Assembly (NCBI GenBank): GCA_963667465.2
Contig: CAXXDN010000002.1
Location: forward strand, 320,001-384,000
Origin: Dehalococcoidia bacterium
Lineage (GTDB): Bacteria > Chloroflexota > Dehalococcoidia > UBA2979
Direction of reading: 5' to 3'
Length of the DNA: 64,000 nucleotides
Each line of letters begins with the position of its first letter. Positions within the stretch are counted from its first letter, which is position 1. Of the stretch, positions 14,492 to 17,532 are shown piece after piece. The translations under genes and the position numbers were made by a program. The notes under the pieces were generated by a model, which had not been told where the DNA came from, searched no databases, and was given only the letters and a program-made list of their open reading frames with translations.

Positions 14492-14958
14492 GCGCCGCCA
14501 GCCCCGTTGCCGCCGCGCGCCGCGAGATCGAGCGGCTCGTCTACTACTACGCCGAGCTGCAGGACGCCGCGGACTGGGACGCCATCGCGGACATGTTCGA
14601 GCACGGCGACTTCGTGGCGGACTCGGGCGTGGGCTGGCGCGGCAAAGCGATCGCGGAGCGCCGCACGGCCAACGTGCGCGCCTACTTCGACGGCACGCCG
14701 CGCACCCGCCACGTCACGACGAACCTGACGATCGACATCGACCTCGATCGTGGCGAGGCAAGCGCCGAGTCCTGCTACACCATCCTGCAGGGCCCGCCCG
14801 CGTTGCCGCTCCAGCCGATCGCGGCCGGTCGCTACATCGACCGTTTCGAGTACGTCGGCGGCGCCTGGCGCTTCACCTACCGTCGCAGCGCCCTCGACCT
14901 GCTCAACCGCTTCGACGCCTTCCGCCGCGACTACGAGCCGCCCGAGGACGCCTCGTAG
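14488..14958 (+). CDS. NTF2/SnoaL-like protein
   Basis: GTG overlapping the SDR stop (GTGA); IERLVYYYAELQD, TRHVTTN, GRYIDRF...WRF. Confidence 0.85.
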   Translation: MSAASPVAAARREIERLVYYYAELQDAADWDAIADMFEHGDFVADSGVGWRGKAIAERRTANVRAYFDGTPRTRHVTTNLTIDIDLDRGEASAESCYTILQGPPALPLQPIAAGRYIDRFEYVGGAWRFTYRRSALDLLNRFDAFRRDYEPPEDAS

Positions 14959-15043
14959 GACCCCCATCCTGGACGAGCACGCGCTGCGCGCGGCTCTGGC
15001 CCGCCCCACCCGCCCTCAGTGGATGCGGGGCTGCGCCCGCCGA

Positions 15044-15070
15044 CTGGATTCCGGCTTTCGCCGGAATGAC
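15044..15070. repeat. REP-like palindrome
   Basis: CTGGATTCCGGCTTTCGCCGGAATGAC, hairpin ATTCCGGC-TTTC-GCCGGAAT; resembles the widespread GTCATTCC...GGAATCCAG extragenic repeat type. Confidence 0.7.
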
Positions 15071-15126
15071 GGGGAGGGGATCCGGCCCCCTCTTCCGGGG
15101 GAGAGACACCCCAGGGTGCTAAGGCG

Positions 15127-16350
15127 TCAAGCGGCGAGCTGTTCGCGGTCGTGGCGGTGCGCCCAGGCGGTGGCCTCGTCGTAGGGGCGACGTGCCTTCA
15201 GGCAGCCGTGGAGGTAGCCGACGAGGCGGTTGCCGAGAGCGCGCAGCGCCTGGTGGTGGAGGTCGCCCGCGGCGCGGCGGCGGTGGTAGAAGTCATGGCA
15301 GCCGGGGCTCGCCTGCAGCGAGCAGAGCGCCCAGCGGTCCACGGCGTCGGCGAGCCGGCGGTTGCGCACGAAGCGGGCGCGCACGCTGCGCTTGCGGCCC
15401 GATGCTACGGTGAGCGGCGAGGTGCCGGCGTAGTTCCTGCGGGACTTCGCCGACTCGTAGCGTTCGGGGTCGTCCCCGAACTCGCCGAGCACCCGGGCGC
15501 CGAGCACGACACCGAGACCGGGCAGGGAACGGTAGATTGCGGCGTCCGGGTGCTGCTCAAAATGGCTCGTGAGCGCGGCCTCGAGCTCCGTAAGCTGACG
15601 GTTGATCTCGCTGATCTGCGCGACCGCCGCGCGGGTGCTCGCGGCGAACGCCCGGCTCACGGCAGGCGGCGCCTCGAGTTGCGGGGAGCGCAGCGCGTCG
15701 CGCACCGCGGCGGCGCGCCGCTCGAGGTTGCGCTGACGTCCGCCGCGGCGCAGCGCCGAGCGGATCTTCGACGTGCTCAGGCGCGCCGCCTCGCGCGGCT
15801 CGCTCGCCCGCGCCAGCACGCCCAGGGCGTCGCCGTGCGCGAGGCTGGGGAAGGCCTGCAGGGCAGCCGGGAAATACTCCCTGAGGGCGTTGCGCAGCCG
15901 GTTGGTCTGGCGCACGCGGTCCCAGATCAGCTGCTGGTGGGCGCGGGCGAGGATGCGCACCGCGGCAGCCTCGTCGCTGTCGCCGGCCAGCGGACGGTGG
16001 TTGTGGCGGTCGGTGCGCACGAGGTCGGCGAGCAGCTTCGCGTCGGCGGCGTCGGACTTGGCGCCGCCCAGGTGGTGACGCTCACGGTAGCGCGCCGCCG
16101 AGCGGGGGTTGATCGCGTAGACGCGGTAGCCGGCCGCGAGCAGGGCCGTGACCCAGGGTCCGCGGTCGGTCTCGATGCCGACCACGACCGCGCCCGGGTC
16201 TGAGGCGTGCTCGGCAACCAGTTCGTGCAGCACGGCGACGCCCGCGACGCCCTCGGGCAGCCGCCTGGCGGCGAGCCGTTCGCCGGCCTCGTTCATGAGC
16301 TGGACATCGTGGTGGTCTTCGGACCAGTCGTCACCGACGTAGAGGGTCAT
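15127..16350 (-). CDS. IS110 transposase (DEDD RuvC + Tnp domain bridge recombinase)
   Basis: YVGDDW, GIETD, INP, KSDAADA, SLPGLG, YAGTSP...SG catalytic-Ser motif. Confidence 0.95.
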   Translation of the reverse strand: MTLYVGDDWSEDHHDVQLMNEAGERLAARRLPEGVAGVAVLHELVAEHASDPGAVVVGIETDRGPWVTALLAAGYRVYAINPRSAARYRERHHLGGAKSDAADAKLLADLVRTDRHNHRPLAGDSDEAAAVRILARAHQQLIWDRVRQTNRLRNALREYFPAALQAFPSLAHGDALGVLARASEPREAARLSTSKIRSALRRGGRQRNLERRAAAVRDALRSPQLEAPPAVSRAFAASTRAAVAQISEINRQLTELEAALTSHFEQHPDAAIYRSLPGLGVVLGARVLGEFGDDPERYESAKSRRNYAGTSPLTVASGRKRSVRARFVRNRRLADAVDRWALCSLQASPGCHDFYHRRRAAGDLHHQALRALGNRLVGYLHGCLKARRPYDEATAWAHRHDREQLAA

Positions 16351-16359
16351 CGTGCCTCG

Positions 16360-16590
16360 CTTTCCTGCGCTTCGTGCTGCTGTTTGCGACCTGCCGGGCT
16401 GGTCCTGCGACGGCCTAATGGACCAGTGCTCTCGGGCACGACACCCCAGGAGTGCTGTGGACCACCCGGACACACCAGCCGGGGCACGGTCTCTCCCTGG
16501 AGATCGCAGTGTCTCGGGGAGGGGCAGTGCTCACCGGCCGGCCGGTCCAAGACCAGTCTCCCAGATCGCTCCAGGGTCCGGTCGAACCCC
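16360..16590 (-). ncRNA. Predicted IS110 bridge RNA (target-binding and donor-binding loops)
   Basis: Two stem-internal loop-stem units with guides GGGAGAG (16491-16497), CTGCCCCT (16520-16527), CCTGGGGTGTC (16440-16450) and CCATTAG (16415-16421) matching target and donor; RNA ends approximate. Confidence 0.8.
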
Positions 16591-16690
16591 ATTAGGGTGG
16601 GGGTGAGGGGGCTCGCCCAACGCAGCTCGCGACCTCGGTTGGTTGTTACGCCCCTCCGGCCGGGGCGTGGAGCGCCGCTGTGCAGCCTCG

Positions 16691-17116
16691 TTAGAACGCG
16701 CGGTGCGTATCGATACGGCCGACGAGGTCCACGTGGGAGCGGCGGTAGAGGAAGCGCCACTCGCCGTCGACGCGCTCGAAGTGGTCGTGGTAGCGGCCCG
16801 CGACGATCGGCTCCAGCGGGAGCGTGTCCGTGCCCTGGAAGACCGTGTAGTACGAGTCAGCCGAGGCCGAGTTGTTCTCCTCGTCCACATCGATGGTGAT
16901 GTTCGTGGTGACGTGCTTCGTGGCGAGCTTGCCGTCATGCAGGATGTTCGAGCGCTTGCGGTGCGCGGACACCTCCGGACCGAGGAACGACTTGCCGTCG
17001 CCGCGCTGGAAGATCCCGTGCGAGAACAGCTCGGCGACCGCGTCGAAGTCGGCGGCGTCCTGCAACTCCGAGTAGTGGAACATCAGGCGGCGAATCGCCT
17101 GCTCGCTGGTGCTCAT
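16691..17116 (-). CDS. NTF2/SnoaL-like protein
   Basis: IRRLMFHYSELQDAADFD, TKHVTTN, GRYHDHF...WRF; paralog of 14488-14958. Confidence 0.85.
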   Translation of the reverse strand: MSTSEQAIRRLMFHYSELQDAADFDAVAELFSHGIFQRGDGKSFLGPEVSAHRKRSNILHDGKLATKHVTTNITIDVDEENNSASADSYYTVFQGTDTLPLEPIVAGRYHDHFERVDGEWRFLYRRSHVDLVGRIDTHRAF

Positions 17117-17154
17117 CGGCCGTCCGCCCTGTCAGGCTGTCCCGGCGGGCCCCG

Positions 17155-17532
17155 CTAGCCGGTGACCTCGGTCACGCTGTCGGCGGTGGTGACGGTGATG
17201 TGGGACATCGGCGAACCGGTGTCGCCCGCGCCGTGCCAGTGATCCTCGCCCGCGGGCACGAGGGCGAAGTCGCCCGCGCTGATCACTTCCTCGCTGTCCG
17301 CGGTGCCGACCTTGCCGATGCCGGCGACGACATAGAGCATCTGGTCGCTGCTATGGCGGTGCATGCGCGTGCGCGCGCCCGCCCCGAACTGCACGATGCC
17401 GAAGCTCATGTCTTGCCCGCGGCCCGTGTCGCCGCCCGCGAGGCGCCGCGCCCAGACCTGCCCGCCCGTGAAGATCTCGGCGGGTGTGCTTTCCGATGTC
17501 TCACCCTCGGAGGACTTGATCACCTCGACCAT
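17155..17532 (-). CDS. Cupin-domain protein
   Basis: FTGGQVW, HRH..DQ, GD...VPAGEDHWHGA; GGGAG RBS. Confidence 0.85.
   Translation of the reverse strand: MVEVIKSSEGETSESTPAEIFTGGQVWARRLAGGDTGRGQDMSFGIVQFGAGARTRMHRHSSDQMLYVVAGIGKVGTADSEEVISAGDFALVPAGEDHWHGAGDTGSPMSHITVTTADSVTEVTG

Follow-up and report, generated by a model that had tools for sequence, protein, structure and literature searches.

The window analysed here, a stretch of 64,000 nucleotides (nt) from contig CAXXDN010000002.1 of a Dehalococcoidia bacterium, carries on its minus strand at 15104-16595 an insertion sequence of the IS110 group, made up of a recombinase gene and a long non-coding left end that appears to encode a bridge RNA. 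An earlier note on this DNA had described an intact IS110 element from a high-GC host, with a bridge RNA programmed against a repeat resembling a repetitive extragenic palindrome (REP). The main parts of the element and its target are listed below, with slashes marking the boundaries of the element.

15104..16595, minus strand: whole IS110-group element with both copies of the CT core; ends identical at 10 genomic copies
16593-15106, minus strand: element proper, 1,488 bp, in the pattern flank...CT/AATGGGG...GGGGTGT/CT...flank
16594..16617, minus strand: left CT core (16595-16594) and left half of the REP-like target, a C-rich block; flank kept at 10 copies and 42 empty sites
15081..15105, minus strand: right CT core (15105-15104) and right half of the REP-like target, including palindrome arms
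16351..16593, minus strand: left end, non-coding, 243 nt, predicted to encode the bridge RNA
15127..16350, minus strand: recombinase gene, 407 codons plus stop, with the ATG at 16350 and the stop at 15129-15127

The host genome (two contigs, C1 and C2; 2.97 Mb, 70.5% G+C) contains 10 full copies of the element and one partial copy at a contig end. Each full copy is 1,488 bp long, only one base differs in total across all 10, and the 407-codon recombinase frame is intact in every one. The single difference falls at window position 16472, in an unpaired linker joining the two modules of the predicted RNA, where this copy has T on the minus strand and the other nine have C; C is also found in the contigs of four public sequencing runs, and the T is thus private to this copy. 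In all 10 copies AATGGGG starts directly after CT and GGGGTGT ends directly before CT, and because the copies share these start and end positions the element can be seen to have a CT core on both sides and no terminal inverted repeats. A 6,081-nt contig of a related strain (run X9) bridges the locus without the element, skipping 15106-16595 exactly and carrying 11 other letters instead. A joint from 15103 to 16595 in runs X1, X2 and X3 was considered as a further empty allele and rejected, its shorter side being 25 letters that lie within repeat sequence.

The right end extends only 21 nt past the stop codon, as against 243 nt for the left end, and this layout is that of the IS110 group and not of the IS1111 group, by the separating criteria set out in PMC11208160. 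There the IS1111 group is described as having a long RNA-carrying right end and sub-terminal inverted repeats of 7-17 bp; membership of that group is ruled out here by the 21-nt right end and by the structured RNA in the left end. The recombinase matches PF01548 (DEDD_Tnp_IS110) over the full profile, 1-155, with 130.3 bits against a cut-off of 29, PF02371 (Transposase_20) with 42.8 bits (cut-off 21.3) and the NCBIfam equivalog NF033542, 'IS110 family RNA-guided transposase', with 185.8 bits (cut-off 140). A profile built from 13 homologues was compared with solved structures, and recovered ISCro4 (9t56, E = 1.4e-11) and IS621 (8wt6, E = 4.7e-11); two relatives with an in-frame stop (L094 and L107) were excluded from the protein alignment. 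The ISCro4 transposase (PDB 9t56) is the best solved-structure match, and although the similarity is remote and the comparison is one of proteins, its G-x-D, K-[ST]-D-x-x-D-A and S-G motifs align: D8, D100 and D103 match the G-I-D and K-T-D-x-x-D motifs, here K-S-D100-A-A-D103-A, and S317-G318 falls on the S-G pair. All of these residues are invariant in 13/13 homologues. The recombinase domains, the 10 intact copies and the base composition of the genome agree with the description of an intact IS110 element from a high-GC host.

To examine the left end we used 80 related loci (L028-L107) from Dehalococcoidia metagenome-assembled genomes (MAGs), an Acidimicrobiales MAG, Actinomycetota MAGs, Smaragdicoccus and a Mycobacterium MAG. 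Their proteins are 67-92% identical to the recombinase of the element, and the closest relatives are in Dehalococcoidia MAGs. RNAalifold, run on 28 non-redundant aligned left ends, predicts a 5' helix followed by two stem/internal-loop/stem modules, with the components listed below.

16551..16583, minus strand: 5' helix (helix 1), 16583-16579 pairing with 16555-16551; 95% of cells paired, one compensatory pair
16474..16542, minus strand: putative target-binding module, its outer stem (helix 4) of 16542-16527 and 16487-16474 enclosing an internal loop
16500..16515, minus strand: inner hairpin of the target loop, GAGA...TCTC (helix 5); 4/6 pairs compensatory, the best case in the fold
16402..16462, minus strand: putative donor-binding module, with outer stems of 16462-16452 and 16411-16402 (helices 7 and 8) around an internal loop; four compensatory pairs together
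16426..16439, minus strand: inner hairpin of the donor loop, GTGC-CCGAGA-GCAC (helix 9); invariant in 28/28

The structure was scored after three predicted intra-loop pairs had been taken out, leaving 43 pairs. Across the 28 sequences 97.0% of cells are paired, compared with 90.9% in shuffled alignments and 27-44% when the partners are slid, and compensatory changes on both sides occur in 16 of the 43 pairs; none of 500 shuffles attains any of the five fold measures. The outer stem of the target module contributes 14 pairs, of which 98.5% of cells are paired and five are compensatory. The donor-loop hairpin fits the fold and is uninformative, since it never varies. Thus the two stem-internal loop-stem units that had been reported at the non-coding end are recovered, as are the hairpin at 16439-16426 between the donor guides and the GAGA-N8-TCTC hairpin of the target loop at 16515-16500, the latter covarying in the relatives.

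Within the two internal loops, four guides and two candidate handshake positions can be assigned as follows.

16440..16450, minus strand: left donor guide CCTGGGGTGTC, reading as the right end followed by the first base of the core
16415..16421, minus strand: right donor guide CCATTAG, reverse complement of CT plus AATGG
16516..16524, minus strand: left target guide CCCCTCCCC, CCCCTCC followed by CC for the two core bases; these 9 nt adjoin the hairpin on its 5' side
16491..16497, minus strand: right target guide GGGAGAG, reverse complement of CT plus CTCCC
16413..16414, minus strand: candidate donor-loop handshake guide GC, its first base complementary to target position 7
16489..16490, minus strand: candidate target-loop handshake guide AC, complementary to donor positions 6-7 (GT)

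The donor guides are the simpler case. The 11-mer CCTGGGGTGTC (16450-16440) is the same as the downstream end at 15115-15105 and is the sole such 11-mer in the left end; its 21 occurrences in the genome are accounted for by 10 guides, 10 right ends and the one partial copy. The reverse complement of CTAATGG at the upstream end (16595-16589) is found just once in the left end, as CCATTAG (16421-16415), of which CATTAG is invariant across all 28 aligned homologues. Both identities had been given exactly right in the earlier note. Variation between relatives points the same way, in that guides reading GGGATGT pair off with right ends reading GGGATGT, a G-to-A change shared in seven loci that fall into two guide/end classes; one locus is discordant.

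On the target side, GGGAGAG is the best of all left-end 7-mers when compared with the 10 right flanks, matching 7/7 at nine copies and 5/7 at one; the earlier note had identified this segment correctly. For the left flanks the best left-end 9-mer is CCCCTCCCC, which matches 6-8 of 9 positions (mean 6.9/9) at every one of the 10 copies, 5-7 of them among the 7 positions outside the core, and which occupies the columns that track the left flank in the relatives. The left target guide had originally been read as CTGCCCCT (16527-16520), with the suggestion that its three mismatches were tolerated or that a repeat variant TGCCCCTCTCCC was preferred. That register does match the left flanks at 5-6 of 8 positions, a level that is not above chance. 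Its first C closes the outer stem of the target module, where GCAC pairs with GTGC, and the T and G after it fall in the 5' part of the loop, before the guide columns begin; in relatives it is the 9 nt adjoining the hairpin that follow the left flank, the shifted 9-mer outscores every other, and TGCCCCTCTCCC has 0 occurrences in the genome. We therefore regard the original register as so improbable that it can be set aside. The presence of a left target guide in this loop was correctly recognised, but the segment was placed 3 nt out of register, the true guide being 16524-16516, and the supposed mismatched guide was a product of this shift. Some tolerance does remain, at positions other than those proposed, namely position 5 of the left target (LT) and the second core position. 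The literal readings of the sequence in the earlier note were all correct at the coordinates given, and its view that the specificity of the element can be predicted from the loops is upheld by the guide-flank matches and by the covariation described below.

A single repeat family supplies the flanks of all 10 copies, with similarity extending for approximately 15-25 nt on each side, so that collecting the other copies, a check that had been suggested, yields the same ends throughout and flanks from one source. The pattern CCCC-N-CC-CT-CTCCC finds 42 further, empty sites in the genome, where N is G in 40 and C in 2. At 38 of these 42 the site is palindromic, with the CT in the 5' arm and a complementary 3' arm (at least 8/9) within 30 nt. 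In the window the repeat lies between two convergent, paralogous SnoaL-like genes (14521-14955, plus strand, and 16694-17116, minus strand; PF13577, E = 4.4e-17 and 1e-17). Since this is a multi-site repeat family with a palindrome and a position between convergent genes, 'REP-like' is a fair description, and the identification of the target as a REP-like repeat holds for 10 occupied and 42 empty sites.

Two further observations concern the repeat. The tenth copy (C2:1583191-1584712) and two relatives (L028 and L029) have a right flank of CT-AACCC in place of CTCCC, which presents two mismatches to the right target guide directly after the core; such flanks represent either off-target insertion that recurs in nature or another variant of the repeat. 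In addition, inspection by eye shows that many copies of the repeat have a variable GC-rich hairpin directly 5' of the C-rich block (for example at C2 ~1892721 and C1 ~277726), which may be relevant to a possible structural influence on target choice.

Covariation between guides and targets among homologues, another suggested check, was scored over 78 loci with an alignable left end, which represent 25 guide pairs; three loci were dropped before counting, L093 because its gene is truncated where the contig begins, and L030 and L036 because their left ends could not be aligned. Of the 7 non-core positions, cognate left guides match their flanks at 5.1 on average, compared with 2.5 for non-cognate combinations; cognate right guides average 4.8 of 5, compared with 2.1. 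In the 13 classes with distinct right guides there are 127 cognate matches out of 156, against 57.5±7.4 after permutation (maximum 95; 0/20,000), although P-values of this kind overstate independence because the loci are phylogenetically related. Even allowing for kinship, 13 differently programmed classes that each track their own flanks seem hard to explain otherwise. The right guide matches target positions 1-6 (the core plus 4 nt) in 100% of classes and position 7 in 62-77%, with matching at chance level beyond. For the left guide, 36 of 83 non-identical cells are G·U wobbles, a share of 0.43 compared with 0.26±0.025 after permutation, and some of the seeming mismatch of the left guide is due to wobble pairing. 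Opposite the second core position, the 25 guide classes carry T, A or C.

These results bear on a reading without a guide RNA, in which the protein alone picks the target and the segments that match between loops, ends and flanks serve as protein-binding sites or terminal repeats. The donor-side segments are nearly invariant in the family and, taken alone, could be protein sites. The target-side segments, however, vary freely and follow the flanks in the 13 classes; each pair consists of one segment that repeats the DNA sequence and one that complements it, which is what pairing to the two strands would predict; and the stems that hold the segments carry compensatory changes. A guide mechanism has moreover been shown experimentally for IS621 (PMC11208160, PMC11208158). 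Target choice by protein alone is consequently very improbable.

The base directly 3' of the right donor guide also varies with the target. It is G in 75 loci, with C at target position 7 in 73 of them, and C in three loci, with G at target position 7 in 3/3, so that it is complementary to this position in 76 of 78 loci. The handshake guide of IS621 behaves in this way according to PMC11208158. At the corresponding place in the target loop, AC stands opposite GT in 62 loci and AT opposite GT in 9; since these positions barely vary, the target-loop handshake is proposed by analogy with IS621 (PMC11208158).

The right end contains one further feature.

15125..15130, minus strand: -35-like hexamer TTGACG of the right end, which shares bases with the stop codon

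A -10-like hexamer 18 nt downstream of TTGACG arises only on joining of the two ends through the CT core; it consists of the last right-end base, the core and the first three left-end bases. By eye this junction hexamer agrees at 5/6 positions with TATAAT, the sigma-70 -10 consensus. The arrangement of TTGACN, a spacer of 17-19 nt and a junction -10-like hexamer is found in 71 of the 72 family elements for which both ends were identified. This suggests that a promoter could potentially be rebuilt across the circle junction, an arrangement that mirrors the one reported for IS621 (PMC11208160, PMC11208158).

Taken together, these features are consistent with the following model. The element would excise as a circle in which the right end is joined to the left end via the CT core, giving a sigma-70-type promoter with its -35 (TTGACG) in the right end and its -10 across the junction. 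This promoter would transcribe the 243-nt left end to produce a bridge RNA of approximately 190-240 nt. The first internal loop would read the target by pairing with both strands of the repeat, and the second would read the donor junction, CCUGGGGUGUC pairing with the right end and CCAUUAG with the CT and the left end. The DEDD/Ser recombinase, with its composite site, would then exchange strands at the CT core, so that the element would be inserted into the 5' arm of the REP-like palindrome at CCCC-N-CC-CT/CTCCC. We conclude that the element is very probably a functional and recently active insertion sequence of the IS110 group, operating as a bridge recombinase system; transcription, circle formation and catalysis we infer from the features described above.

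Besides the kinship of the relatives, several results weigh against this conclusion. The minimum free energy of the single left-end sequence is not below that of its shuffles (z = -0.24), so that support for the fold comes from the alignment, and searching window 14800-16900 against Rfam (release 15, E up to 1) gave no match within the left end at 16351-16593. In the protein, a single-sequence search of solved structures returned no IS110 recombinase even at E values up to 10, and the hidden Markov model alignment puts the catalytic Glu of the family two columns away from E60, which is for this reason assigned by motif only. In the guide, U at LT position 5 faces a top-strand G at 40 of the 42 empty sites, and the base at the second core position is C instead of U, so that only the first core base is paired. 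Finally, no circle junction was found in the contigs of four runs, though contigs drop rare forms, and there were no RNA runs among the public runs that contain the stretch.

The last two results would also suit a decaying or domesticated relic that is no longer mobile. Such a relic would not be expected to show a single differing base among 10 copies of 1,488 bp with every frame intact, nor to be missing from the locus in a related strain, and we consider this explanation quite improbable in comparison with a functional bridge recombinase system.

The two positions at which the left target guide fails to pair contrast with IS621, which strongly prefers core pairing and perfect matches (PMC11208160). 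Variants of LT position 5 that can pair with the guide U are found at 3 of the 10 insertions and at 2 of 42 strict empty sites (P = 0.043), a difference that disappears when sites with up to two other mismatches are included (P = 0.76 and 1.0), so that the outcome depends on how a site is defined. One explanation for the tolerance is that base pairing provides only part of the specificity, and that the recombinase also recognises the hairpin or hairpins of the repeat as a second determinant of a structural kind. A dual-match rule of this kind, as reported for ISPpu10 in a preprint (bioRxiv 10.64898/2026.03.19.712850), would explain how an imperfect left guide lands almost only in this repeat. 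In line with it, all 10 insertions are in one repeat family that is conserved well past the guided 14 nt, the CT core is in the 5' palindrome arm at 38/42 empty sites, and only 1/10 insertions is at any of the 216 genomic sites with two mismatches outside LT position 5. Conservation of the flanks across the repeat would, however, also follow if most occurrences of the guided 14-mer lie within the repeat, and relatives with other guides insert into non-repeat sequences. We regard a structural determinant as possible, while leaning towards its absence.

A related and rather doubtful suggestion is that this clade uses looser left-target rules than IS621, with repeat structure supplying the missing specificity. 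Such rules are allowed by the free choice of guide base at the second core position, by the excess of G·U wobbles over chance, and by the rise of the element to 10 copies despite a C, in the dominant repeat variant, opposite the guide U at LT position 5. Were such rules real, they would represent a natural 'degenerate guide plus structural gate' solution to the colonisation of a whole repeat family.

The closest parallel among known systems is IS621 of E. coli (PMC11208160, PMC11208158). Both have a DEDD RuvC-like domain and a Tnp domain with a Ser-Gly loop, and a long left end that encodes, in order, a 5' helix, a target-binding loop and a donor-binding loop. In both, the 5' guide of each loop has the top-strand sequence and the 3' guide its complement, the core is CT, the left donor guide ends at the first core base, and two-base handshake positions lie 3' of each right guide. 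Further points in common are natural targets of the REP type and a promoter re-formed at the circle junction, which here is read from the sequence. The element differs from IS621 in its very distant protein, which is matched only by profile and is 407 amino acids long compared with 328 residues in the solved IS621 chain, and in its host, of 70.5% G+C. The right target guide here reads the core plus 4-5 nt, whereas that of IS621 is given as 4 bases, and the left-guide base at the second core position is C, while IS621 strongly prefers full core pairing.

Insertion into repeats has parallels in Pseudomonas putida, where the IS110-family elements ISPpu9 and ISPpu10 are reportedly located in REP or conserved intergenic repeats. 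They are likewise present in multiple copies in a palindromic intergenic repeat, the structure of which may aid recognition (for ISPpu10, bioRxiv 10.64898/2026.03.19.712850). Both differ from the present element in host phylum and in sequence. The orthologues (L028-L107) are much closer, with common ends of AATGGG... and ...GGG[G/A]TGT and a common RNA architecture. Many of them share the CCCC-N-CC-CT-CTCCC target; others have different target guides (25 pairs, 13 right-guide classes), and none has the left guide of this element.

We found no paper that describes this element, although the supplementary predictions of PMC11208160, which comprise thousands of bridge RNAs, may include relatives. 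It is a well-supported but ordinary addition to the bridge-recombinase family, which it fits on every feature examined, and it leaves the known mechanism of these enzymes unchanged. What it adds is a cleanly delimited and, to judge from its sequence, evidently active bridge recombinase from a genome of 70.5% G+C, with four guides and both candidate handshake positions that can be read directly. Its natural target spectrum, with 10 occupied sites, 42 perfectly cognate empty sites and approximately 25 differently programmed relatives, provides a data set from which the guide positions that naturally tolerate mismatch or wobble could be worked out, and the element is a candidate high-GC orthologue for engineering.

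Some minor observations were made on the genome and the locus. The partial copy, at the very end of C2 (C2:1903804-1904564), has the same right flank as the full copy at C1:3248-4783; either the assembly contains one locus twice or a segment is duplicated at the contig ends. Another, different IS110-family element is present outside the window as three identical copies of a block of approximately 1,514 bp (C1:223676-224143, C1:460108-460575 and C2:26930-27397), with a 423-codon open frame and a C run at both ends. Sponge metagenomes are among the public runs that contain window 14500-17200 (runs X2, X7, X8 and others), and approximately one third of the words of this interval also occur in runs labelled with several organisms, where probably only the element or its relatives are present. 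Lastly, the sole significant Rfam match is to Ms_AS-4 (RF02464) at window 15445-15526 on the plus strand, with 65.1 bits against a gathering score of 50. The match runs antisense to the best-conserved region of the recombinase gene, and probably reflects IS110 coding sequence, not a separate small RNA gene.

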